Below, one piece after another: positions 1 to 47,073 of a stretch of 64,000 nucleotides of DNA; position 1 is the stretch's first letter, and every line of letters starts with the position of its first letter. Origin of the DNA: Escherichia coli (GTDB taxonomy: Bacteria; Pseudomonadota; Gammaproteobacteria; Enterobacterales; Enterobacteriaceae); assembly GCF_003790525.1 (NCBI RefSeq), contig NZ_CP033635.1, one strand, 5' to 3'. The translations under genes were made by a program, and so were the position numbers. Under the pieces are notes generated by a model, which ran no database searches, had not been told where the DNA came from, and worked only from the letters and a program-made list of their open reading frames with translations.

Positions 1-62
1 GTCAGCGTTGAAAACGTACCGGTAAGCGCAGCTACCGCAGTGAGTGCCAGTAACTTTTTCAC
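1..62 (-). CDS. 5' end of a secreted-protein gene (signal peptide MKKLLALTAVAALTGTFSTL...), continues beyond the window start
   Basis: Reverse-strand reading from a GTG at 62..60 gives a typical signal peptide; a GGAGAGG Shine-Dalgarno lies just upstream (revcomp of ~66-72). Product unknown. Confidence 0.35.
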   Translation of the reverse strand, partial: MKKLLALTAVAALTGTFSTL

Positions 63-377
63 AATCCACCTCTCCTGATGTTTCCTTCAGACATATGAAT
101 TTGTCCAATTTTAAGACGGATTTCTCATTGGTAAAATGAATTGTACAGATCGTATCGATCGACAAAGTCGATCGTTAAGCAGAAAAAAGATTTATCGTCA
201 GCGAAGATTTGTTTATGGAAATGACTGAAAAAACGGGTTAAAAAACAGACTGTTCTGTCCATGTGAAACGGGAAGTGACGGGATAAGACGTTATGTGAGG
301 ATTGTTACGGGAAATGCTGTTTTACGTTGTTAAAATGTAACTCCGCAATGAAACTATCCCCTGTGGAGGTCCTGTAA

Positions 378-731
378 ATGAACAAAGCACTCTCTTCCAT
401 TCTGCTCATCTTCGGTATCTGTGCATCATCACTGGCCGCTGAAAAAAACAGAACCGTCAGTTTTCCACGATGTGAAGTACAGGAAGCATCAGCTGTTGCA
501 GCCAGCGTCAAACGGGACTATCTCCAGAAACAGGTATTTCAGTGGAAAGATGATCAGGAAATTCTCGGTCAGCAGCGTCCCGTTGTCTGGGTGAATCTTC
601 GTGAGCCGGTAAATAAAGGTGATAATGTCATCACAGTGCATCTCACTGCCCGTGGAAAGAAAGCAGATATTCAGTATCGTGTGCGCGTTGACTGTAAGAA
701 CGGAAGTGCTACCTGGCAACGCCAGGGATGA
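378..731 (+). CDS. YebF-like small secreted protein (island paralog)
   Basis: 117-aa ORF with signal peptide and conserved motifs (SVKRDY, DCK) resembling E. coli YebF from memory; the neighbourhood is not the K-12 yebF locus. Confidence 0.7.
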   Translation: MNKALSSILLIFGICASSLAAEKNRTVSFPRCEVQEASAVAASVKRDYLQKQVFQWKDDQEILGQQRPVVWVNLREPVNKGDNVITVHLTARGKKADIQYRVRVDCKNGSATWQRQG

Positions 732-777
732 ACGGGTGAAGTTGAATACAGAGCCCGAACGAACGGGCTCTCCATAC

Positions 778-1350
778 TCATCGTATATAACTGAATGCGG
801 TGATGACGTGTTTCACCCCCGCCACGCGACTGGCGATATCAGCAGCAGCCTGTCCTTCCTTCTCTGTAACTCTCCCCATAAGAAAGACTTCACCATTCTC
901 CGTCAGTACCTTTACATCTGACAGTTTCACCCTGCTGCTCTTCAGTAACTGTGCCCGGATTTTTGTGGTCAGCCACGCATCAGTAGCTGTTTTATCAGCC
1001 CGAAGTGGTTTTCCCGTCCTTATTTCATTCCATACCTGCACAGTCCCCTCAACACCATCTGCAATCTGACGGGCTTTTTCACCTGCACTACGGTCTGGTG
1101 CCTGCCCTGTCAGCAGTACAGTGCCCTGGTATGCTGTGACGATGATTCGCGCATCCCCCCTGAGTTGTGAGTCCTTCGACAGCGCACGGCTGACCCTTGC
1201 TTCCAGAATTTCATCATCAATCTGCGTTCCCGCACTTCGGGGGTCCACTGACACTTTAGTACCCACAGCAGCCGTACCGACCAGCGCAGCGGCAACACAA
1301 CCCTGTAACAGCAACAGAGTCGAAAGAAAAGGCAGAAACCAGCGTTGCAT
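778..1350 (-). CDS. DolP/YraP-like BON-domain outer-membrane lipoprotein (island paralog)
   Basis: Lipobox LLLQGC followed by two BON-like repeats; strong resemblance to DolP (YraP). Start placed at the internal ATG (MQRWFLPF...) rather than the upstream ORF-track Met. Confidence 0.7.
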   Translation of the reverse strand: MQRWFLPFLSTLLLLQGCVAAALVGTAAVGTKVSVDPRSAGTQIDDEILEARVSRALSKDSQLRGDARIIVTAYQGTVLLTGQAPDRSAGEKARQIADGVEGTVQVWNEIRTGKPLRADKTATDAWLTTKIRAQLLKSSRVKLSDVKVLTENGEVFLMGRVTEKEGQAAADIASRVAGVKHVITAFSYIR

Positions 1351-1673
1351 GGCAGAATCCTCCACGGTCTGATATCCGGAATTTCGCAGTATGACGGCAG
1401 GAATCAGCCATCACAGATACCACAAGCTTCAGAGAGTAACGAAAACGTTAAAGGAAACGGAAGTGCCTGAATGTAAAGAACGGGGAACCACACAGGGTAT
1501 GGACAAACATAATAACAATAACAGGATGAAAATATTGAATAAAAAATAAAAACCGAGACATCATCATTTGCAGTAATAGCCACCTCCTTACCGAAAAGTG
1601 TGAGTTGCCGGACATTTTTTAAACGCATGATAAGGTCTGATGATACAGTCACCCTGCAACCAGGAGGTACATC

Positions 1674-1967
1674 ATGCGTATACGTGTTTTTGGTTACCGG
1701 CACTGCCCTTCAGTCCATCGCATCATGCATCACGCAACGCGAATCCCCGATGAAATGGAACCGGATGTTGTGTTTATTGATGTCGCGAAGCACAGTGTGA
1801 CGCTGCGGGATATGGCTGACCGTGCAGGCTGCCCGGTGGATAACTTCCCGTGTGTGTTTGTTGATGATGTCTATCTGGAGCCCCTCCACCAGAACCGGGC
1901 AAACCGCACTTTACATACTGCTGAATATTTATTACCGGATATGGACAATCGCTTTCATTCGGGATAA
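1674..1967 (+). CDS. hypothetical protein, possibly glutaredoxin-like fold
   Basis: 97-aa ORF with an N-terminal beta-strand plus CPxx motif (MRIRVFGYRHCPSV) reminiscent of glutaredoxin/NrdH, but without a canonical CxxC; weak call. Confidence 0.3.
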   Translation: MRIRVFGYRHCPSVHRIMHHATRIPDEMEPDVVFIDVAKHSVTLRDMADRAGCPVDNFPCVFVDDVYLEPLHQNRANRTLHTAEYLLPDMDNRFHSG

Positions 1968-2091
1968 AAAATACTGCGCGTTCCTGGTTTATTTTGCGTT
2001 GCTGTCATGACGTGTTTGCCTTCATTGCCGGGATCGCGCACTTTTTGTTATAACTCCCCGGAGGACACTGTCTGTAATCAGATGGAAACCT

Positions 2092-2526
2092 TTATCTCAG
2101 TGATGTCCTGGTTAATACAGAATACTGCCCCGGACCAAGTAACATAATGGCAATCCCCCCCATGAAATACAGCATTTCATTTTCAAGCCCCCACGCCCCT
2201 ACTTCAGTCAGTGTGAAAAACTTCCCTGTTCCGACCAGAAGCGTGGCAACAATCAGTGTCAGCGCATAAATCAGAGCAGCAGGTCTGGTAAATATCCCAA
2301 GAATGATAAGTACCGGAGCCACGATTTCACCAATATACACACCATAGGCAATAAATCCTGGCAAACCAGCATCCTGCAACATTGATATAATCCAGTTGAC
2401 ACCGTGCTCTATTTTGGCCACACCATGGAACAGCATCAATATACCAAATGTCAGTCTCAGCAACAGAAGACCTGTATCCGGGTAGTCTGTCAGTCTGGTA
2501 AAGAACATATTTATTCTTGCTGGCAT
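2092..2526 (-). CDS. DoxX-family inner membrane protein
   Basis: 144-aa hydrophobic ORF with the DoxX-like N-terminal pattern (LLLLRLTFGILMLFHG). Confidence 0.65.
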   Translation of the reverse strand: MPARINMFFTRLTDYPDTGLLLLRLTFGILMLFHGVAKIEHGVNWIISMLQDAGLPGFIAYGVYIGEIVAPVLIILGIFTRPAALIYALTLIVATLLVGTGKFFTLTEVGAWGLENEMLYFMGGIAIMLLGPGQYSVLTRTSLR

Positions 2527-3085
2527 AAAAAACCTCGTTAAACGATAACAGATAATGAAGAAACTATTATCGTTGAGTCGACACCATCAATTGACCAGAT
2601 ATTTCTGACATTCATAATCAAAAAATTTGACAAAACTGTAAACGTTCGCTTTTTATACCAACACAGAATCCACTCAGTCACACAACCTGTATGCGTCATT
2701 TCCTGCTGTTATTTAAAAAATTTCTCACGTAACAGACATTTCAAAAAAACACTAAAAAATACCAGAACAATTAAGATAATATTACGATCAAATAAGTAAA
2801 AGTCTTTTGTCTGTTATTTTTATTTTCTGTGATTACTGTCATTCTTTCACCACTTTAATTAACATCGCATAATAATCCGGGAGGTGGATAAGATATGAAA
2901 ATTAACTATCCTTTACTGGCGCTGGCGTTGAATTATTACCTGTAGAGCTCACTCCGGATGAGCAGAAAGAACCGATGGTGGCTCTTACTCCACTTTTATC
3001 CACTCCTTCACACAGCACTGTCAGTGCAGGTGCCTGAAAGATCTCGTTCCGTCACGGTAAAATGACGCTGGAAAATTCTTCACCA

Positions 3086-3285
3086 GAACTGCTCACTGTG
3101 TTAATTCGTGAACTGACCTGGGGGGAATGCGTGGTACCCTGCTGTACGGACTAATCGGAACCTGTCGGTTGAACGGTATCGATCCGGAAGCGTATCTGCG
3201 CCATATCCTGAACGTTCTACCGGAATGGCCTTCCTGCATGGTTGATGAACTCCTGCCATGGAATATGGTGCTCCCATTGGGGTAA
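3086..3285 (+). mobile_element. IS66-family transposase 3' remnant
   Basis: Translation ...GTLLYGLIGTCRLNGIDPEAYLRHILNVLPEWPSCMVDELLPWNMVLPLG* matches the conserved C-terminal end of IS66-family transposases; no intact upstream ORF. Confidence 0.6.
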
Positions 3286-3411
3286 GCGTCAATACGGCGT
3301 TCGCTTAACTTAACACTTACTTTCAAAGCCTGATATCTGTCCTACGCTTTTCCTCAATACCACATCGCCAGCAGGAAACAACCTAATGCCTGTGTTGGGG
3401 TCTGAATTACT

Positions 3412-3427
3412 AATGATAATCATTTGC
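3412..3427 (+). promoter_or_regulatory. putative Fur box upstream of sitA
   Basis: AATGATAATCATTTGC resembles the Fur consensus GATAATGATAATCATTATC; sit operons are known to be Fur-regulated. Confidence 0.5.
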
Positions 3428-3449
3428 ATTGTGTATAGCTTATGCTATA

Positions 3450-3471
3450 AAACATAGCCGTTGCTATGTTT
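3450..3471 (+). promoter_or_regulatory. putative MntR operator upstream of sitA
   Basis: Near-perfect palindrome AAACATAGC-cgtt-GCTATGTTT, as in MntR sites of mntH/sitA. Confidence 0.55.
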
Positions 3472-3503
3472 GTTCTAATTTTACTCACTATAGGTACTGA
3501 ATT

Positions 3504-4418
3504 ATGCACTCAATAAAAAAAGTAACCATGCTCCTGGGGTGCCTCGCCCTCACCTGCTCGATAGCATTTCAGGCGAGTGCAACTGAAAAATTCAAGGTCA
3601 TTACAACATTTACCATCATCGCAGATATGGCCAAAAACGTGGCTGGAGATGCTGCAGAAGTCTCATCCATAACCAGGCCCGGTGCAGAAATTCATGAGTA
3701 TCAGCCTACCCCTGGCGATATTAAACGTGCGCAGGGGGCACAACTGATTCTCGCCAACGGTATGAATCTGGAATTGTGGTTCCAGCGCTTTTACCAGCAT
3801 CTCAGTGGGGTTCCAGAAGTGATTGTCTCTTCGGGTGTGACGCCAGTAGGGATCACCGAAGGCCCCTACGAGGGAAAACCTAACCCTCATGCCTGGATGT
3901 CGCCAGATAATGCTTTGATTTACGTCGATAATATTCGTGATGCGTTGATAAAATACGATCCGGCAAATGCAAAAACATACCAACGTAATGCCGATACTTA
4001 TAAAGCCAAGATTACCCAAACCCTTGCCCCCCTGCGTAAGCAGATTGCTGAACTCCCTGAGAATAAAAGATGGATGGTCACCAGTGAAGGGGCTTTTTCT
4101 TATCTCGCACGCGATTTGGGGCTAAAAGAGCTTTATCTGTGGCCGATAAATGCCGATCAACAAGGAACACCCCAGCAGGTACGTAAAGTGGTTGATATAG
4201 TGAAGAAAAATAATATCCCAGCGGTATTTAGTGAGAGTACGGTTTCCGATAAACCAGCGCGTCAGGTTGCGCGTGAAACCGGCGCACACTACGGCGGTGT
4301 GCTCTATGTCGATTCCCTGAGCACAGAAAACGGCCCGGTACCTACGTATATCGACCTTCTGAAGGTTACTACCAGTACGCTGGTGCAGGGAATTAAAGCC
4401 GGGAAAAGGGAGAAGTAA
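3504..4418 (+). CDS. sitA: SitA, periplasmic Mn/Fe-binding protein of the SitABCD ABC transporter
   Basis: 304-aa ORF with signal peptide and metal-binding SBP cluster-9 features; matches SitA from memory. Confidence 0.85.
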   Translation: MHSIKKVTMLLGCLALTCSIAFQASATEKFKVITTFTIIADMAKNVAGDAAEVSSITRPGAEIHEYQPTPGDIKRAQGAQLILANGMNLELWFQRFYQHLSGVPEVIVSSGVTPVGITEGPYEGKPNPHAWMSPDNALIYVDNIRDALIKYDPANAKTYQRNADTYKAKITQTLAPLRKQIAELPENKRWMVTSEGAFSYLARDLGLKELYLWPINADQQGTPQQVRKVVDIVKKNNIPAVFSESTVSDKPARQVARETGAHYGGVLYVDSLSTENGPVPTYIDLLKVTTSTLVQGIKAGKREK

Positions 4419-4560
4419 TGATGCAATCTGCGGGTATTGTCGTTAATGGCGTTACTGTCACCTGGCGAAACGGGCAGAAAGCACTGCGCGATGCATCCTT
4501 CACAGTACCAGGCGGATCTATTGCCGCTCTGCTTGGGGTAAACGGTTCCGGTGAAATCGT
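4418..4560 (+). pseudogene. sitB: sitB remnant (ATPase truncated just after the Walker A region)
   Basis: ORF begins like SitB (GIVVNGVTVTWRNGQKALRDASFTVPGGSIAALLGVNGSG) then diverges into unrelated sequence; sitC and sitD are absent. Confidence 0.7.
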
Positions 4561-4900
4561 CTTGACACGTTTCTGGGCTCGTCATCAGCGGTTGTTGCGA
4601 ATGATCGCCGCCCTGCGATGGTTGATTTATTTTATTGCGCCCCGGCGTCTGCCTTGCCAGGTACCGGAGGCGGGCTCTGAAGGACTGAGTAGGGTGAGCG
4701 CGTCAGGCCGCGAAGTACTGACACGGGAGTTTGTGGCAGGCAGTGAAGTCCTGACCAGGGTAAGGGAGGCGCTGACGTGCAGGTCCTGACTGTCAGCCAG
4801 GCGCATGGTGACTGACTTTCTCAATAACCCGCTGTCAGGCGCTCAACGCCCGACAGCAGGCCATGGCCCGGTGTGCAAAGACCTGACGGCAGGTGTTGTG

Positions 4901-5221
4901 TCACCCGGAGAAGGTAAATCCCTCAAGAGGCAGCAGCTCAGCCAGTCGGTCCTCAGGCCACTCCGGCAGGCGCGTCAGTACGTCCGTCAGCCAGGCATGT
5001 GGCTCCAGACCATTACGCTTTGCTGTTTCCAGAAGACTCATTATCTGTGCCGCGCGTTTGCCGGCCATCAGCGAGCCTGCGAATAACCATGCCTTTCGCC
5101 CCAGCGTGACCGGGCGGATGGCTCGTTCGCAGATATTGTTGTCCGGTGGCACAGAGCCATCATCCAGAAAACGGCACAGCTCATCAGGTCGTTTCAGGAT
5201 ATAGCTGATAGCCTTATGCAA
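4901..5221 (-). mobile_element. IS66-family transposase C-terminal remnant
   Basis: 106-aa ORF (...ICERAIRPVTLGRKAWLFAGS...LETAKRNGLEPHAWLTDVLTRLPEW...) matches the IS66-family transposase C-terminus; the 5' part of the gene is missing. Confidence 0.7.
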
Positions 5222-5694
5222 TGGACTGTCTGGCGGACCGCCTGCTCCTGCTCTTGACGGTTTTTTGCCTTGTATATCAGGTTATAGACGAGAAGATTGT
5301 CGTCTTCGTGGTTTCCGTCAGGAAAAGAGAATGCTCAAAAGTGTATAGTAAGGCGGTCAAACGCATTCGCTGAAATAAGATGTGTCACTTCAGCTTTGCG
5401 TTAACACGACTATTTTTCATCACTCAAGCGGTAGTCCCGGTGACTCACACGTATACGAGTCACCGCTTCAGATTTGAGTATCCGAATTTAAATCAGGGAC
5501 ACAATGGAAGAAGCGAACACTTTCGCATCCTCTTCCTGCAATTCGCAGACTGTCACTCTGCGTCCAGTTCCCTCTTTCCTCAGCAGGTACCAACGCCAGG
5601 CTCCCGACAAAGGTTGACCTGAAACGACCAAATACACAGGAAACAAAATACTGTCAGACAGAACGAGGCGTGCTATACATCACGCCTCAATGCT

Positions 5695-6684
5695 TCAGTG
5701 GCTGATTTTTTTCAGCTGTTCTTCACTCAATCCCGTGATTTTCATGATGGTCTGAAGCCCCATTCCTTCAGCCAACATATTACGCGCCGTTTCCAGTTTG
5801 CCTTCCAGTTGTCCTTCGAGTCGCCCTTCGGCACGGCCTTCCATTCTGCCTTCCATTCTGCCTTCTAGCTTACCGCGCTCCATACCCTGGGCAATACCGC
5901 GCTCAAATCCCTTGACTTCCCCTTCCTGCTTCAGTTGTTCAGCCAGTGTCATTATGTTGCCCTCATGCTGTGGCAGCCGCTCCGCCAGCGTCTGCAAAAA
6001 CCTTACCGTCACATGTTCACTGCCGTTCAGCAGATAGTGGAACAGAGCCTTCGCCAGCTCTTCATTCAGTGAAGTCTGTATCAGCTGAACCAGCCTGTCC
6101 ATCTGCAGCATGATGTCGCGGCTGCGGCTGTGTTTCATCAGCAGCGTCAGTGCCCCCATTCGGCGGTGTTGCATTATCTCATCGTCATCCAGTACCGTCA
6201 CGTCCACCAGGTGGAACGGTCTGGTGTAGATTTTAGCAGCAAGTTCCGGATTTCTGAAACACTCCAGCCAGTTCATGCTGTACGGGTACGGGCTCCGCTC
6301 ACCGTGGTAGAATAACAGCGGGATCACCAGCGGCAGCTCATGGTGCTGTTCAAAGTGACGCTGCATCGCCGCCACCGCATATCTGAGCATCCTGAACGCC
6401 ATAAACGCGTTTTCCGTACTCTGGTGTTCCGCGAGGCAATAAATATACCCCTCCTCACCGCTGACGGTCTTCATGCTGAACAGCGCATCGCACGCATACT
6501 GTTTCAGATCCTGGTCCACAAAGGTACAGGGCTCCAGCCGCAGCGTCGACAGATCACACAACTGCCGGTATTCCGCCGGAAGATGCAGTTCAACAAAATC
6601 ACGGGCCACCTCTGCTGAGGCCATAAACGCCCTGAAGGCGGCATCATGCGGCGTGGGCGTATTTTTCTCTTTCCTGCTGCTCAC
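5695..6684 (-). CDS. Rpn-family recombination-promoting nuclease (YhgA-like putative transposase)
   Basis: 329-aa ORF with PDDEXK-like N-terminal region and the characteristic C-terminal EGRxEGR repeat tail of RpnA-E paralogs. Confidence 0.8.
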   Translation of the reverse strand: MSSRKEKNTPTPHDAAFRAFMASAEVARDFVELHLPAEYRQLCDLSTLRLEPCTFVDQDLKQYACDALFSMKTVSGEEGYIYCLAEHQSTENAFMAFRMLRYAVAAMQRHFEQHHELPLVIPLLFYHGERSPYPYSMNWLECFRNPELAAKIYTRPFHLVDVTVLDDDEIMQHRRMGALTLLMKHSRSRDIMLQMDRLVQLIQTSLNEELAKALFHYLLNGSEHVTVRFLQTLAERLPQHEGNIMTLAEQLKQEGEVKGFERGIAQGMERGKLEGRMEGRMEGRAEGRLEGQLEGKLETARNMLAEGMGLQTIMKITGLSEEQLKKISH

Positions 6685-6918
6685 TGTTTATCTCTTCTGA
6701 ACCAGGTAACATTAACAGAACATGTTTCAGGATATCCGCGCAGTGCGGAACATTACGGCTCACCACTGTGACGGCGGATCATCGCCACCCAGTATCCGAC
6801 AGACCCCTTACTTTGTTCGTAAACATCCTTCCTGCCCCCCTGAATCTCCAGACAACCAATATCACTTAAATAAGTGATAGTCTTAATACTAGTTTTTAGA
6901 CTAGTCATTGGAGAACAG

Positions 6919-7284
6919 ATGATTGATGTCTTAGGGCCGGAGAAACGCAGACGGCGTACCACACAGGAAAAGATCGCAATTGTTCAGCAGAGTTTTGAAC
7001 CGGGAATGACGGTCTCCCTTGTAGCCCGGCAACACGGTGTGGCAGCCAGCCAGCTATTTCTCTGGCGCAAGCAATACCAGGAGGGAAGTCTTACTGCTGT
7101 GGCCGCAGGAGAACAGGTCGTTCCTGCCTCTGAACTTGCTGCTGCCATGAAGCAGATTAAAGAACTCCAGCGCCTGCTCGGCAAAAAAACGATGGAAAAT
7201 GAACTCCTCAAAGAAGCCGTTGAATATGGACGGGCAAAAAAGTGGATAGCGCACGCGCCCTTATTGCCCGGGGATGGGGAGTAA
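6919..7284 (+). CDS. insC: IS2 transposase OrfA (InsC)
   Basis: [56 protein letters not shown]... is the IS2 OrfA sequence. Confidence 0.9.
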
Positions 7285-8147
7285 GCTTAGTCAGCCGTTG
7301 TCTCCGGGTGTCGCGTGCGCAGTTGCACGTCATTCTCAGACGAACCGATGACTGGATGGATGGCCGCCGCAGTCGTCACACTGATGATACGGATGTGCTT
7401 CTCCGTATACACCATGTTATCGGAGAGCTGCCCACGTATGGTTATCGTCGGGTATGGGCGCTGCTTCGCAGACAGGCAGAACTTGATGGTATGCCTGCGA
7501 TCAATGCCAAACGTGTTTACCGGATCATGCGCCAGAATGCGCTGTTGCTTGAGCGAAAACCTGCTGTACCGCCATCGAAACGGGCACATACAGGCAGAGT
7601 GGCTGTGAAAGAAAGTAATCAGCGATGGTGCTCTGACGGGTTCGAGTTCCGCTGTGATAACGGAGAAAAACTGCGAGTCACGTTCGCGCTGGACTGCTGT
7701 GACCGTGAGGCACTGCACTGGGCGGTCACTACGGGCGGCTTCAACAGTGAAACAGTACAGGACGTCATGCCAGGAGCGGTGGAACGCCGCTTCGGCAACG
7801 ATCTTCCGGCGTCTCCAGTAGAGTGGCTGACGGATAATGGTTCATGCTACCGGGCTAATGAAACACGGCAGTTTGCCCGGATGTTGGGGCTTGAACCGAA
7901 GAGCACGGCGGTGCGGAGTCCGGAGAGTAACGGCATAGCAGAGAGCTTCGTGAAAACGATAAAGCGTGACTACATCAGTATCATGCCTAAACCAGACGGG
8001 TTAACGGCAGCAAAGAACCTTGCAGAGGCGTTCGAGCATTATAACGAATGGCATCCGCATAGTGCACTGGGTTATCGCTCGCCACGGGAATATCTGCGGC
8101 AGCAGGCCAGTAATGGGTTAAGTGATAACAGGTGTCTGGAAATATAG
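7242..8147 (+). CDS. insD: IS2 transposase OrfB (InsD)
   Basis: 301-aa ORF with integrase-core catalytic region, overlapping orfA in the -1 frame as in IS3-family elements. Confidence 0.9.
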
Positions 8148-8199
8148 GGGCAAATCCACCTGAATCTGAGGCAGCACCTGGCACGGCTGGGACGGAAGT

Positions 8200-8441
8200 C
8201 GCTGTCGTTTTCAAAATCGGTGGAGCTGCATGACAAAGTCATCAGGCATTATCTGAACATAAAACACTATCAATAAGTTGGAGTCATTACCGTGTTCCCG
8301 ACAGACGACTCGGTGAAAAAAGTGGTGTGGCTGGCAATCCAGTCTGCGTCCCAGAAATGGACGATGCCGTTGAAGGACTGGCGAATGGCAATGAGCCGCT
8401 TTATTATCGAGTTCGGTGACCGCCTGGACGGTCACTTCTGA
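8200..8441 (+). mobile_element. IS256-family transposase 3' remnant
   Basis: Translation FPTDDSVKKVVWLAIQSASQKWTMPLKDWRMAMSRFIIEFGDRLDGHF* matches the conserved C-terminal tail of IS256-family transposases; only this tail is present, immediately right of IS2. Confidence 0.5.
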
Positions 8442-8473
8442 GAAAAGGCATTTACACAGAATCCTAAACAGGC

Positions 8474-9211
8474 TCATGTACAGCGCTGTACCGGGCAATG
8501 GGTAATACCGGTCACAACCGGTAACCCCAGAGACAATGCAACTGTTTTTAACGCAATATACTGGCCGGATGTATCACCCCGGGCAGCCTGAAAACACCTT
8601 TCCACCCGGCATTGTCCGTCAGCACTTATCACCCGCCATGTCTGTTGCAATAAATCCACCCGTTGCGAACATTCTTCATCAACCGTGGCACTGACCCGTG
8701 GATGGCAAATGCTCGTCTGGCTGAGCAGCAACAGGCATCGCATTGTTGCTCCTCCATGTTGTTCCCGCAACCAGCGTAATACCACCGGTGGTGCTGGACT
8801 GGCCGTGTGATTACGTTCAGTAATACGCTCGTGCACCTGTCGGTAAAAGGAAGTACAGAATGCATGAATCTGTTGTCCGTTGATGTTTCCTTCTGCCGAA
8901 TGGAGTGTGAAGTGGACGGCCAGCAGACGCGGCCAGTGATCCACCGCCTGCTGAATAAAACGCCGGATTTCCACCGGCTCTGAAAGTACGGTTTCGGTTA
9001 TTTGCACGATTTGATCCCCTTGAATGTTGCTGAACCGGTGTCGGTACGCAGGAAAGCACGCCGAGACCGGTACGATGCCTGTTACAGCGAAGAACGAGGA
9101 ATGACAGACGGGGGCAGCAGGTCGCCAGCACCAGGGACAGGGCTGATTTCCACAATACCAACGCTGGTATTTTGCACATTGCCAGCGTACCGGCATTACA
9201 ACACGTTTCAT
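8474..9211 (-). CDS. YagK/YfjJ-like (inovirus Gp2-like) protein, third tandem copy; possibly degenerate
   Basis: Central region (RLLAVHFTLH...NGQQIHAFCTSFYRQV...) parallels the two upstream paralogs; an internal Met at 9211 would overlap the alpA-like stop (ATGA). The N-terminal region is Cys/Trp-rich and atypical, so a frameshifted pseudogene is possible. Confidence 0.35.
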   Translation of the reverse strand: MKRVVMPVRWQCAKYQRWYCGNQPCPWCWRPAAPVCHSSFFAVTGIVPVSACFPAYRHRFSNIQGDQIVQITETVLSEPVEIRRFIQQAVDHWPRLLAVHFTLHSAEGNINGQQIHAFCTSFYRQVHERITERNHTASPAPPVVLRWLREQHGGATMRCLLLLSQTSICHPRVSATVDEECSQRVDLLQQTWRVISADGQCRVERCFQAARGDTSGQYIALKTVALSLGLPVVTGITHCPVQRCT

Positions 9212-11209: not shown

Positions 11210-12720
11210 TACGGCATCATGTCATTAAGCAATGCTACAACTCTCTGATTAAGAGTGATTGAAACGGAACAAACCATCCCGGAACGAAAAGATAATCCTG
11301 CACACAGCAGCAAAACACGCAACAACAGCATGAATGGATTTAAAAACGACATGGACGACGAGAAAAGCCTGAAGGGAAAAGGATCCACAGAACATTCGAA
11401 CAAAACACCAGAAACGCAACCAGAACGCTTCCTGGCAATGCAAATCAACAACAACACCAAAACCTACAGCTTAATCACACAACTCAATCACGAATGCGAA
11501 TGACACGTTTAAAACCTGTTTACAGATAACGTCGTAACAAGATCATCCCCATCAGAATCGATTTTCTTATCTTGAGTATGTTACTTTTCAACATACCTAA
11601 ACGATTAACCACCGATAACGTAAATCTCATCTGAATCAAAACACCAAAACCAATCATCACGTTTTCGACAGAAGAAAAACACCACATCATGACAAAAAGA
11701 ATGACCTTACACGGAAAAGAAAAACGTCAGGAATCGTTAATGCATACCTCAATCTGATTGTTATCAAAACATCCAGAAAGTCGTTTAACAGAATCGTCGT
11801 AAGCACATCGAAAAGAACGTCAGATCACCTCAGGAAAGTTCGGGTTGATTTAGCGTAAAGATACTTTTCTCAGCTTAACGTCGAAACACAAACCAAAAAC
11901 CACAAACAACCAAAGCTCAGGAAAGGTTAAACGTCACATCAGTAAAATCGAATAGCAGATTGATTGCTTAAACAGGAAGGATTGTTTTACAGCAGCATTA
12001 AACTGATTTAGTTAACGTAAAATCAGAACTGACAGGTTTACTAACTTGGATGTGTATCAGTTCAAAAATGTGTACAGCAATGCGTAATGAAACACATTTA
12101 AAGGAGATTAATGGGAAAAGTGTGTAAATGCGTAAACATGCACTAATGAATCACTGAAGGAATACATACAAAACGACTTAATGAAAACATAAAAGGACCT
12201 AATGGAAAAGGTGTATATAATACCATATCCGACATTCTCAACATCTTAAGACATCCATGCAGACTGAATGTTGGTTTCAGTTTTTCACGGTAAGCATGAA
12301 TCTTTTCTGTTCAAAAGCAGAGCAGATTTACTCTGGAATTATTTTTCTTACTCCGTATTCTGTACAGCAAAAACTTGTGCTAACTTTACAGCAAACCATC
12401 ATAATCAGCGTCTGTAGTCCCATCGCTTTACCCCATGAAAGTGAATCCATATGATGCGAGAGAGATAAGTCATCGTATCCGGTAAACACTGCTAACCATA
12501 ACATAAGATCATTCAGTCAGTTTTATCTCTGAACTGACGATTATGGCATGCTCATTTATATGGCTCACAGAGGAGTGTTATTATCTGTAAGCTTTAATCA
12601 TCAAATCACATGACCATACCAAACTGGCGCTATATCAGCTCATTTGACACCCCTTCCCTTTAGATTTCTTTATGTGTTTTTTGTCGATAATTAAAATGTA
12701 ATATGAATTTAATATTTTTA
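11210..12720 (+). other. ~1.5 kb non-coding, strand-asymmetric A-rich tract
   Basis: No ORF of 60 aa or more between 11503 and 12257 in any frame; hand counts on sampled 60-nt blocks give roughly 38-45% A versus 12-23% T on the + strand. Confidence 0.6.
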
Positions 12721-15935: not shown

Positions 15936-16016
15936 TGCCGTTTCCCTGAGTGAGGGAATCATTCAGCTTTCGTTCCTGAAAAACACACATTTATTTGTTA
16001 TTTAAGGAGTTATCTC

Positions 16017-16457
16017 ATGAAAACCGTTTCTCAGAATACCCCCACAATTTATTCAGCTACAACACCAGAGAATAATCCGCCTCAGTTGGTTGCCAGCCTC
16101 GTCCCTGATGAACAGCGCATCAGCTTCTGGCCGCAGCATTTTGGCCTCATTCCACAGTGGGTGACCCTGGAGCCCCGTGTCTTCGGCTGGATGGACCGTC
16201 TGTGCGAAGACTACTGCGGTGGTATCTGGAATCTGTACACCCTGAACAACGGCGGCGCATTTATGGCCCCCGAACCGGATGATGATGATGACGAAACATG
16301 GGTACTGTTCAATGCCATGAACGGTAACCGCGCTGAAATGAGCCCGGAAGCCGCCGGCATTGCTGCCTGTCTGATGACGTACAGTCATCATGCCTGTCGT
16401 ACGGAGTGTTATGCCATGACGGTTCATTATTACCGTCTGCGGGATTACGCCCTGTAG
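16017..16457 (+). CDS. antirestriction protein (YfjX/KlcA/ArdB-like)
   Basis: 146-aa ORF with the conserved FWPQHFGLIPQW...GWMDRLCEDYCGGIW motif block. Confidence 0.8.
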   Translation: MKTVSQNTPTIYSATTPENNPPQLVASLVPDEQRISFWPQHFGLIPQWVTLEPRVFGWMDRLCEDYCGGIWNLYTLNNGGAFMAPEPDDDDDETWVLFNAMNGNRAEMSPEAAGIAACLMTYSHHACRTECYAMTVHYYRLRDYAL

Positions 16458-19609: not shown

Positions 19610-20458
19610 ATGTCTGATATCACAATCCCTTATCCGGAAGCGGTCAACGGACATACGGACGTTATCTGCTCCACAGATATCCGGCACGTTGTGACGGTAC
19701 GGAATGAAGCACTGCAACAAACCGAAAGGGTTATCCGGCAACTGGCAGAAATCTCAGCAATGACAGAAAGCATAGGCGGTAAAACGGCGCGGGACTGGGC
19801 CGTGAAACAGGATTTTCGCTGTGGCTGCTGGCTGATGGAAAAACCGGAAACCGCAATGAAAGCCATCACCCGGAACCTTGACCGTGAAATCTGGCGTGAC
19901 CTGATGCAACGCTCCGGGATGCTGAGTCTGATGGATGCACAGGCGCGTGATGAATGGTACCGTTCACAGGAGGACGATAATTTCCCGGAAATCAGCGAAG
20001 CGAATATCCTGAGCACGTCTGAACAACTGCACCGTAACAGGGATGAAATGGCTGAACGGGGCGTCATCAACCTCTTCAGGGGACTGAGCCGGACGCAAAA
20101 CAGCGGGTCACCCTGTAAATTCGGCAGCAAGATTATCCTCAACAACCTGGTGAAATGGGACTGGTGGGGATTTGGTCTGAACCATGGCCCGCAGGCCGGG
20201 CGGCTTGCCGACCTGGAAAGAATGTTGTATCTGTTCAGTGGTAAACCCATACCCGATTACAGGGACAATATCCTCATTCGTCTGGATGAGCACATCCGGT
20301 CCGTTCAGGGTGAAGCGTGTTATGAAGATGAGATGTTCAGCATCAGATACTTCAGGAAAGGCTCTGCGCATATCACGTTTAAACACCCGGAACTGGTGGA
20401 GAAGCTGAATGCTGTTCTGGCGAAACATTATTCGGTAAAGTTCCATTCTTCTGTATAA
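19610..20458 (+). CDS. hypothetical protein, 282 aa (possibly DUF4942-like)
   Basis: Long ORF with a good SD (AAGGAAAA); family assignment from memory is uncertain. Last gene before the core genome. Confidence 0.5.
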   Translation: MSDITIPYPEAVNGHTDVICSTDIRHVVTVRNEALQQTERVIRQLAEISAMTESIGGKTARDWAVKQDFRCGCWLMEKPETAMKAITRNLDREIWRDLMQRSGMLSLMDAQARDEWYRSQEDDNFPEISEANILSTSEQLHRNRDEMAERGVINLFRGLSRTQNSGSPCKFGSKIILNNLVKWDWWGFGLNHGPQAGRLADLERMLYLFSGKPIPDYRDNILIRLDEHIRSVQGEACYEDEMFSIRYFRKGSAHITFKHPELVEKLNAVLAKHYSVKFHSSV

Positions 20459-20661
20459 ACTTACAGATCACGGGTATTGTGTCTCGTCCTGAACAGGGCC
20501 GACAGGTATACTGCATTCGCTGAGCCATTACAGATAATGCCTCAACTGAGTTCAATCTACCTCCATGTACAACAACAATACGATGGGGGCTACATTGGGG
20601 GCTATACTTTCAAGTAAAACTGATATAACCAAGATTAAACAATAAGATAGAGAATTTTCAC

Positions 20662-20716
20662 CATTCCCCTCTGGGGAGAGGATTAGGGTGAGGGGCGCAA
20701 ACCCGCTCCGGGGCCA
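20662..20716 (+). repeat. GC-rich palindromic repeat-like element upstream of glnP
   Basis: CCATTCCCCTCTGGGGAGAGGATTAGGGTGAGGGGCGCAAACCCGCTCCGGGGCC contains nested inverted repeats resembling E. coli intergenic palindromic units. Confidence 0.3.
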
Positions 20717-20765
20717 TTAATTACCCTGAATTTGATTATTTACACCACGGTAACAGGAACAACAT

Positions 20766-21425
20766 ATGCAGTTTGACTGGAGTGCCATCTGGCCAGCCAT
20801 TCCGCTTCTGATTGAAGGTGCCAAAATGACCCTGTGGATCTCGGTCCTCGGTCTGGCTGGCGGCCTGGTGATCGGATTGCTGGCAGGTTTTGCACGCACC
20901 TTCGGTGGTTGGATAGCCAACCACGTCGCGCTGGTCTTTATTGAAGTGATCCGCGGCACACCTATCGTCGTCCAGGTGATGTTTATCTATTTCGCCCTGC
21001 CGATGGCGTTTAACGACTTACGCATCGACCCGTTTACTGCGGCGGTGGTCACCATCATGATCAACTCTGGCGCGTACATTGCGGAAATCACGCGTGGTGC
21101 GGTGCTGTCTATTCACAAAGGTTTTCGTGAAGCAGGACTGGCGCTCGGTCTTTCACGTTGGGAAACCATTCGCTACGTCATTTTACCGCTGGCACTGCGT
21201 CGTATGCTGCCGCCGCTGGGTAACCAGTGGATCATCAGCATTAAAGACACCTCGCTGTTTATTGTTATCGGTGTGGCGGAACTGACCCGTCAGGGGCAAG
21301 AAATTATTGCCGGTAACTTCCGCGCCCTTGAGATCTGGAGCGCCGTGGCGGTGTTCTATCTGATTATTACCCTGGTGCTGAGCTTTATTCTGCGTCGTCT
21401 GGAAAGAAGGATGAAAATCCTGTGA
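20766..21425 (+). CDS. glnP: glutamine ABC transporter permease GlnP
   Basis: 219-aa ORF matching K-12 GlnP ([15 protein letters not shown]...). Confidence 0.95.
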
Positions 21426-46359: not shown

Positions 46360-47073
46360 CTAATGAAAAAACCGCGTATGCCTTTGCCAGACAAGCGTTA
46401 TAGCTATAGCGGCAAGAATCCCAAAGAAGCCGATAAAATAGTAATAGAGTGTTAATGCACCTATAAAAGCACAACGAACCGGACTCCATAATTCTTCACT
46501 ATGGCATTTTCCTGCCAGTTCAAGGAGCTTATTTCGTCCATGCGAGATAATGCCTGACCATAAGACAATCATTAAGCAACTTATTACCCAAATGGGTCGT
46601 TCACTCATTAATGTGGCATTCACGATGATTACCAGGGCCAACCCTGTCAACGTCATCATAATGGTAAAACGGTGAGAGCCAGGATCAACATTGAATAATA
46701 AACCAGCCAGCATACTGATAAAAAACATCGCGCCCGCTGTGCTGAATACGACGATAATGGCAGATACAGGCGCTAAACTCGCAACGACAATCGCCACCAA
46801 AGAGATTAAAAACAAATATATTACGCCCGCGATGGCGGTATTTATCTTGTTGATATCTTTACTTAAGCCATACATAGAAAGTAATAATAATCCTATAGCA
46901 ATATACATTTCCGGTGAATCATATTTTGTTGCCGTAATTTCGAGATACTTAGCGCCCCAGGCCAGCCCTGCGGTTGCCACCAAACCCAAAGCGGTAATGA
47001 GCCATATGCCGTTTAATATCCTGGCTTCGTGCTGAAAATCTAATTTATTGCTATTTTGCGAGTATGATTCCAT
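46360..47073 (-). CDS. ybhM: BAX inhibitor-1 family membrane protein YbhM
   Basis: Matches YbhM from MESYSQNSNKLDF...; the ORF-track N-terminal extension is rejected. Confidence 0.85.
   Translation of the reverse strand: MESYSQNSNKLDFQHEARILNGIWLITALGLVATAGLAWGAKYLEITATKYDSPEMYIAIGLLLLSMYGLSKDINKINTAIAGVIYLFLISLVAIVVASLAPVSAIIVVFSTAGAMFFISMLAGLLFNVDPGSHRFTIMMTLTGLALVIIVNATLMSERPIWVISCLMIVLWSGIISHGRNKLLELAGKCHSEELWSPVRCAFIGALTLYYYFIGFFGILAAIAITLVWQRHTRFFH

Follow-up and report, generated by a model that had tools for sequence, protein, structure and literature searches.

The question raised by this locus is how a copy of IS2 came to lie among remnants of other insertion sequences, and whether the resulting pile shaped the gene losses on either side of it. 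The earlier note, made from the sequence alone, had described an apparently intact IS2 directly followed by the last ~50 codons of an IS256-family transposase gene, and had seen in this pile, together with nearby IS66 fragments, a recombination hotspot that probably shaped the deletions in sitBCD and on the glnH side. The window, by which we mean the whole analyzed stretch of 64,000 nucleotides, is E. coli chromosomal DNA. It matches the chicken strain CM2 at 99.9% identity over positions 1-8475, and from 8476 to 57332 it runs colinear with strain Br_112_kylling (Br_112); the source E. coli is probably poultry-associated. The host region is a CP4-like genomic island, which reads from the left sitA, a sitB stub, IS66 fragments, a RelE fragment, an Rpn-family gene and the IS pile, and continues on the right with a hypothetical gene, an HTH gene, a further hypothetical gene and Gp2/YagK, then YeeU/CbtA, and finally DUF4942. 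The DUF4942 gene abuts glnP, glnH is absent, and glnQ, ybiO, rlmF and fiu follow, and farther on moa, uvrB and bio genes. The Rpn-family gene (5695-6684, minus strand), encoding a recombination-promoting nuclease or putative transposase (NCBIfam TIGR01784, E = 1.7e-51; RpnA, E = 1.9e-90), is the left neighbor of the pile and lies outside it; RefSeq annotates it in CM2, Br_112 and LH50-c.

The IS2 itself (IS3 family; 6828-8158, plus strand) is intact in its coding capacity. It aligns to IS2A of E. coli K-12 over 1331 bp with no indels and 43 mismatches (96.8% identity), and shows 100% identity with the CM2 and Br_112 copies, for which RefSeq annotates an intact IS2 transposase with a programmed frameshift. 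It has the length (~1.33 kb) and the two overlapping ORFs of its family, with orfA at 6919-7284, the orfB frame at 7242-8147 and, at the A6G slippery site AAAAAAG (7236-7242), the -1 frameshift that gives OrfAB. The products of orfA and orfB matched the NCBIfam models for IS2 TnpA and TnpB along their entire length, with scores exceeding the curated cut-offs (275.8 bits against a cut-off of 229 for TnpA, and 711.8 bits against 597 for TnpB). The right end is canonical as well. IRR (8118-8158) is a 41-bp repeat ending in CA-3' with the tip ...GGGGCAAATCCA, the sole IRR match within the window being ...ATATAGGGGCAAATCCA at 8142-8158, and its one substitution relative to K-12 (nt 1305) is common to CM2, Br_112 and Ch1, all of which are identical to the window here. 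As far as both ORFs and IRR are concerned, the description of this IS2 as intact was borne out.

The left end is another matter, since the terminus that had been taken as complete has lost its tip TAGA to host CTTC. An ungapped comparison with K-12 IS2A, together with an alignment to LH50-c, identifies the 42-bp IRL (6828-6869, plus strand) as a hybrid. Whereas a canonical 42-bp IRL starts with TAGACTGG, the tip here is CTTCCTGC: nt 1-4 are CTTC (TAGA in IS2A), nt 8 is C (G in IS2A), and nt 9-42 are canonical. Both nt 1-4 and nt 8 are those of an IS2-free host allele. In terms of provenance, nt 1-4 derive from the host and nt 14 onward from IS2, with nt 5-13 ambiguous; the inner protein-binding domain (nt 12-42) is unaltered, although nt 12-13, where host and IS2 agree, could have come from either. 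Nt 8 is not diagnostic, because a natural G8C variant of IS2 (TAGACTGCCCCCC) with a normal TAGA tip occurs on 10 plasmids, and the crossover interval is therefore in register and within nt 5-13.

Inspection of the IS2 flanks for a 5-bp target-site duplication, the check suggested in the earlier note, found none, the element being preceded by ACATC and followed by CCTGA. Control copies of IS2 do carry 5-bp duplications, namely ATTAC in K-12, ATCAC in L004, CCGAT in pSTM2 and CTGAA in an ETEC plasmid. Because the canonical IRL tip and the target duplication are both missing, this copy is best described as fused to host DNA, and not as an intact inserted IS2. Among 5,426 complete E. coli genomes, CM2 and Br_112 alone contain a 35-mer of the hybrid IRL, in both cases at this locus, and a 34-mer of it had zero matches in metagenome contigs. 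This confinement of the hybrid tip to one locus is suggestive of an immobile copy.

The host side of the fusion can be read in LH50-c, which matches the window at 99% over 241-6852 and has no IS2 there; after its Rpn gene comes a UvrD-like/ankyrin helicase pseudogene. From the alignment with LH50-c (L007 9194-12101), the last ~33 codons of this helicase gene persist in the window as a 3' remnant at 6753-6852 (minus strand). The alignment extends 25 bases into what would be the IS2 IRL, and the native sequence over these bases is CTTCCTGCCCCCCAGAATCTCCAGAATG. Within it lies a 21-mer, corresponding to window positions 6832-6852 and thus within the helicase remnant, in which 19 of 21 positions are identical to IRL nt 5-25. 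In LH50-c this stretch reads ...CATCCTTCCTGCCCCCCAGAATCTCCAGAATG... within the helicase coding sequence (ILEILGGRK; ...PPYILEILGGRKDVYEQ...). When IRL nt 5-25 was searched at up to three mismatches, the LH50-c 21-mer was the sole match in the 18-kb locus, and none of 200 shuffles gave one. The helicase allele at 99% identity or above was found only in LH50-c, and paralogous helicase genes with 82-85% identity occur in ~100 genomes. In the three paralogous genes that we read, the homologous coding stretch is kept and becomes progressively less IS2-like. We considered that the 21-mer might be a relic of a former IS2 and ruled this out, since it is in-frame helicase coding sequence and its diverged paralogues are less IS2-like. 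The IRL-like 21-mer is therefore a native host look-alike of the IS2 left end.

In transposase-mediated strand transfer, it is the very tip of the IS end that is joined to the target DNA. An in-register fusion lying inside the IRL therefore points to homology-driven recombination over a short homology, and not to transposition. For the same reason, we rejected the look-alike as a surrogate end for the transposase as the direct cause of the fusion, since strand transfer would give IRR beside the look-alike, or would mobilize the intervening DNA.

What such a left end would mean for the activity of the element can be considered in light of the work on IS2 by Lewis et al. (2012; PMC3299598), in which IRR is the sole donor end in step I, the IRL takes part in circle formation solely as the recipient, and the abutted ends of the minicircle are the active substrate. 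In the domain layout given there, the inner protein-binding domain of the IRL spans nt 12-42 with the cleavage domain outside it, and mutations in the outer A element of the IRL leave minicircle formation undiminished (PMC3299598). With an intact transposase, the donor end IRR and the binding domain of the IRL, the window copy would probably still be capable of circle formation, while its altered cleavage domain may block or impair cleavage at the left end and re-insertion.

On its right, the IS2 does not lie directly against the IS256-family tail as had been supposed, because a 133-bp stub of IS1 (8159-8291, plus strand) intervenes. This stub corresponds to nt 636-768 of IS1A, comprising the final 37 codons of insB together with the right inverted repeat, for which a terminal repeat match lies at 8265-8291, and is 100% identical to the IS1A of Br_112 (Pfam DDE_Tnp_IS1, E = 1.1e-15). 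A complete IS1 has 768 bp, both terminal repeats and insA/insB, and only a fragment of this is present. The IS256-family tail that follows was correctly recognized, and is a stub of IS1414 (8292-8475, plus strand; nt 1132-1315 of 1315), 100% identical at the DNA level to a complete copy. It contains the last 49 transposase codons (8292-8441), then the 3' non-coding part and the right terminus ...AAACAGGCTC; the fragment thus runs beyond 8441, where the earlier note ended it, to its terminus at 8475. Since the 49-aa tail gave no Pfam or NCBIfam match, being too short a peptide, the assignment to IS1414 rests on DNA identity. The complete reference element has 1315 bp and an 8-bp duplication (TGTAATGA), and IS1414 is known with an embedded astA (PMC12585946). 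Of the features of the family (1315 bp, terminal repeats, a 402-aa DDE transposase, astA and an 8-bp target duplication), the window has a fragment only, and it lacks astA, which lies at about nt 785-900 of the element. The RefSeq annotation of CM2 gives the same series of IS2, IS1 fragment and IS256 fragment. Both the IS1 and the IS1414 stubs are functionally dead.

These two stubs are part of a widespread module. Many genomes, most of them from poultry, contain the IS1/IS1414 junction at 8291/8292 with 100% identity, and in these a complete IS1A and the IS1414 tail lie beside sigma-HTH and YadA-like genes. There is no IS1 duplication at this junction, and the 5' part of IS1414 is already missing. 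The IS1A::IS1414 junction is old and of single origin. By comparison, the IS2/IS1 junction at 8158/8159 is contiguous only in CM2 among the E. coli genomes searched, and PLSDB plasmids contained none.

The three lineages, namely the window, CM2 and Br_112, share the hybrid left junction and differ in what follows to the right. The window and Br_112 are identical as far as 8158, the right end of IS2, exactly where Br_112 switches to unrelated DNA, beginning with a TRAP-permease fragment. CM2 is identical up to 8475, the tip of IS1414, beyond which it has sigma-HTH and YadA-like genes that are absent from the window. As these breakpoints coincide with IS ends, the IS ends are real rearrangement breakpoints, and to that extent the characterization of the region as a recombination hotspot is supported by the synteny of both strains ending exactly there. 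Further support comes from the IS2 of Ch1, which has the TRAP right flank of Br_112 with a canonical IRL, another left flank and no duplication. This copy is a mosaic, K-12-like over nt 88-358 and window-like over nt 359-1331, and IS2 copies can therefore serve as portable homology for exchange between one IS2 and another.

No other genome among 5,426 complete ones shares the junction at 8475/8476, which is unique to the window. Compared with Br_112 and CM2, 5,310 bp (L011 6321-11630) are missing from the window, and its positions 8476-9079 correspond to Br_112 L011 11631-12234 at 99.8% identity. The gap extends from the exact IS1414 tip, with a 2-bp AT overlap, to 17 nt inside the next island gene, and the missing DNA holds a sigma-HTH gene, a YadA-like gene, two gene fragments, an IS1 and a ProQ/FinO gene. 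The truncated island gene (8476-9007, minus strand), a hypothetical gene orthologous to WP_001167455.1, has lost its last 17 nt at this junction, and the junction with the IS1414 tip supplies it with a stop codon (8474-8476).

Taken together, from the observed anatomy of the locus, the native origin of its IRL-like site and the breakpoints between strains, we infer the order of events and the recombination mechanism as a history of four steps, in which we place moderate confidence. In a first step, IS1A would have come to lie at nt 1131/1132 of IS1414, beside the sigma-HTH/YadA-like module, with loss of the 5' 1131 bp of IS1414. In a second step, the right end of IS2 would have been joined to nt 636 of IS1, most simply by ordinary insertion at nt 635/636. 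In a third step, the IS2 IRL would have recombined with the helicase 21-mer through their short homology (19-20 of 21 bp), in register and with the crossover within nt 5-13, deleting the helicase gene, the 5' part of IS1 and all intervening DNA, and leaving an IS2 with host DNA as its four outermost bases and without a target duplication. In a fourth step, confined to the window, a 5.3-kb deletion would have run from the exact right tip of IS1414 into the next island gene.

Several observations weigh against this history. Its presumed precursor, an IS2 in an intact IS1 with a CCTGA duplication (...GCATAACCTGA joined to TAGACTGG), was found in none of the E. coli genomes and PLSDB plasmids, and the reciprocal product of the third step was found in no record. 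Crossovers within a block of 5-9 bp, where the homology is imperfect and 21 bp long, are also rare. Moreover, in Br_112 the hybrid IS2 has another right flank, and IS1A is intact at a different place; to account for this, one or more additional exchanges between IS2 copies, or a horizontal replacement, must be assumed, and the order of steps two and three is uncertain. In IS1, IRR is followed by the 9-mer CCTGAATCT, which is identical to IRL nt 12-20; the four-step history treats this as a coincidence.

Alternatively, IS2 may have inserted normally at the helicase look-alike, followed by a slippage deletion and later by exchange of its flanks through IS2 x IS2 recombination. In this scenario, CCAGA or CCTGA would have been duplicated, so that the flank CTGCCCCCC.GA and the true IRL CTGGCCCCCTGA formed direct repeats 16 bp apart; loss of one repeat and of TAGA by replication slippage would have produced the hybrid tip, and the right flanks (IS1 in the window and CM2, the TRAP-permease fragment in Br_112) would have been acquired afterward. 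Such a course yields the same in-register product and accounts for one hybrid IS2 with two different right flanks, and it draws on a process that is documented by the Ch1 mosaic and the shared TRAP flank. IS2 targets of the CTGAA type also exist; however, these examples were chosen by their similarity to the query and are silent on preference. An IS2 preference for CCTGAAT-like targets was itself dropped as a candidate, the plasmid matches being query-selected ordinary insertions (CCGAT, CTGAA). Weighing further against insertion and slippage, three events are needed, IS2 would have had to insert precisely where the host DNA resembles its own end, and IRR beside helicase sequence (GGGGCAAATCCA abutting CCAGAATCTCCAGAATG) occurs in no record, LH50-c alone having the allele at 99% identity or above. 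We therefore regard this course of events as possible but unlikely.

A further scenario starts from an excised IS2 minicircle, whose IRL would have undergone one homologous crossover with the chromosomal 21-mer and so brought the circle into the chromosome; the abutted right junction would have been resolved afterward. The reciprocal junction of IRR, spacer and IRL' would be highly reactive, and attacks by the right end on nearby DNA would produce variable flanks and no duplication. This would explain the in-register fusion and the fact that the variable right flanks start exactly at the IRR tip, and it is in keeping with the formation of circles by IS2, the activity of their abutted ends and the role of IRR as sole step I donor (PMC3299598). 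However, the reciprocal junction (IRR-N-TAGACTGGCCCCCAGAATCTCCAGAATG) was nowhere among the records searched, ordinary recombination explains every observation equally, and there is no citable experimental precedent for the homologous integration of IS2 circles, which makes this origin improbable. Equally little weight can be given to the broader idea that a host coding mimic of the IS2 left end acts as a homology 'landing pad', for example for a minicircle, and that the resulting junction drove the rearrangements at the right end in CM2, the window and Br_112. If this were true, chance look-alikes of inverted repeats in genes would be predictable hotspots for the capture of copy-out-paste-in IS elements and for later deletions.

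Assembly artifacts at repeats might in principle account for one or more of the junctions, and it is the 8475/8476 junction, absent from all other genomes in the set of 5,426 complete ones and located at the edge of a multi-copy repeat, where the sequence by itself leaves room for a mis-join. However, independently assembled complete genomes also show the junctions at 6827/6828, 8158/8159 and 8291/8292, and the window passes without a break through a multicopy IS2 of 1.3 kb, which speaks for an assembly that is finished or built from long reads. We consider artifacts very improbable. The reading of an intact, normally inserted IS2 lying directly against an IS256-family remnant has in its favor the undamaged coding capacity and IRR and the proximity of an IS256-family tail, but it is refuted by the 133-bp IS1 stub, the host-replaced IRL tip and the lack of a target duplication, and it has next to no chance of being correct.

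A separate question is whether the pile accounts for the gene losses around it. LH50-c is without IS2, IS1 and IS1414 at this place, yet it has the same sitA, the same 147-nt sitB stub and the same IS66 and RelE fragments. On the other side, the DUF4942-glnP junction lies ~12 kb to the right of the pile and is colinear in Br_112, in which there is no IS2 there and IS1A is intact. Since the changes in sitBCD and on the glnH side are thus found also in genomes without the pile, the pile is not their cause, contrary to what had been proposed. The IS66 fragments mentioned at the outset are real, being C-terminal pieces of TnpC at 3127-3285 (plus strand) and 4901-5221 (minus strand). These two inverted fragments bracket the sitA-sitB' segment, and are more obvious suspects for the sit deletion.

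The locus is therefore of interest mainly as a record, in which three IS elements document successive deletions in an island that contains part of the sit iron/manganese transporter operon. It would also provide a natural example of how short-homology recombination may leave an IS copy that lacks a target duplication and ends in a terminus that is not canonical. Both annotation pipelines and readers who score such a copy as 'intact' will overlook the fused IS2 tip. Outside of correct annotation the significance is small, apart from correcting the idea that the pile caused the loss of sitBCD or glnH.

In comparison with known systems, the locus is a layered scar of the known elements IS2, IS1A and IS1414 in an island, and as such is already known biology. 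The window IS2 resembles K-12 IS2A in length, register, orfA/orfB, the A6G -1 frameshift and the IRR tip, but differs from it in the host-derived nt 1-4 of the IRL, C8, the lack of a duplication and the fusion to a native IRL-like sequence. With the widespread IS1A::IS1414 module, it shares at 100% identity the same junction of IS1 nt 768 to IS1414 nt 1132 and the IS1414 tail, whereas the window IS1 is cut at nt 636 by IS2 and 5.3 kb beyond the IS1414 tip are deleted.

Adjacent deletions mediated by IS elements, nested scars and homologous recombination between IS copies are textbook behavior of IS1, IS2 and the IS256 family. The breakpoints at IS termini, the flanks shuffled between strains and the mosaic IS2 are all in line with such deletions; by contrast, the left IS2 junction is set inward from the tip of the repeat by a few bases, where the host look-alike lies. 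Targeting of sequences resembling inverted repeats offers a second comparison. Loot et al. 2002 reportedly described a target-specificity switch in IS911, with targeting of IR-like sequences. For IS30, targeting of IR-like sequences is likewise reported (PMC9333248). The resemblance of host DNA to an IS end at the site of the event is common to IS3-family and IS30 targeting and to the present locus. However, whereas such targeting places the IS beside the look-alike, with a junction of abutted ends, here the look-alike replaces the element's own IRL tip in register, and this fusion, in register, between IS2 and host DNA that resembles its end is the only mildly unusual point of the locus.

An earlier note held that the pile of insertion sequences at IS2, together with IS66 fragments 2–4 kb away, probably shaped the deletion in sitBCD. 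Two C-terminal fragments of an IS66-family TnpC, one on the plus strand (3127–3285) and one on the minus strand (4901–5221), are mutually inverted and enclose sitA together with a 147-nt stub of sitB, which is truncated after about 48 codons, near position 4560. This arrangement is common to the related E. coli strains LH50-c, CM2, and Br_112, and the loss of sitBCD is likely due to the IS66 TnpC fragments rather than to the IS2 pile. At the right edge of the island (about 20450–20790), a DUF4942 gene is joined straight to glnP, without glnH, and the same junction is also found in Br_112.

The comparison between the window and Br_112 was colinear apart from three short intervals unaligned to that strain, namely 46641–46956 (about 316 bp, near the region of ybhN and a hypothetical gene), 11877–12211 and 15936–16070. 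The alignment with Br_112 overlaps by 75 bp at 12-bp tandem repeats (5791–5865) inside an Rpn-family gene (5695–6684), where the repeats code for the EGR/MEGR-rich C-terminal part of the protein. The copy number of these repeats appears to vary among strains; the annotated Rpn CDS is 1059 nt long in Br_112, whereas it is 930 nt in CM2 and LH50-c. On the other side of the pile, a hypothetical island gene (8474–9007), orthologous to WP_001167455.1, is missing its final 17 nt, and its stop codon now spans the junction with the IS1414 tip (8474–8476).

The IS1 sequence directly 3′ of the IS2 right end starts with the 9-mer CCTGAATCT (8159–8167), which also occurs at 6839–6847, corresponding to nt 12–20 of the IS2 left inverted repeat (IRL), the opening bases of its protein-binding domain. 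As a result, IS2 nt 21–1331 are bracketed by direct repeats. By a rough, post-hoc estimate, the probability of such a coincidence by chance is about 3e-4.

In strain Ch1, an IS2 (2750–4080 of the Ch1 locus) without target duplication is a mosaic, in which nt 88–358 are K-12-like and nt 359–1331 are identical to the window copy, while its right flank is a TRAP permease fragment common to Br_112. This mosaic is direct evidence for homologous exchange between IS2 copies. Among IS2 elsewhere, the IRL sequence TAGACTGCCCCCCTGAATC (G8C), whose TAGA tip is normal, is carried by plasmid p124_C (2497–2530 of the plasmid locus) and nine further E. coli plasmids, and is a natural variant; in all three plasmids examined, this IS2 sits within another IS3-family fragment, adjoining an N-6 DNA methylase gene.
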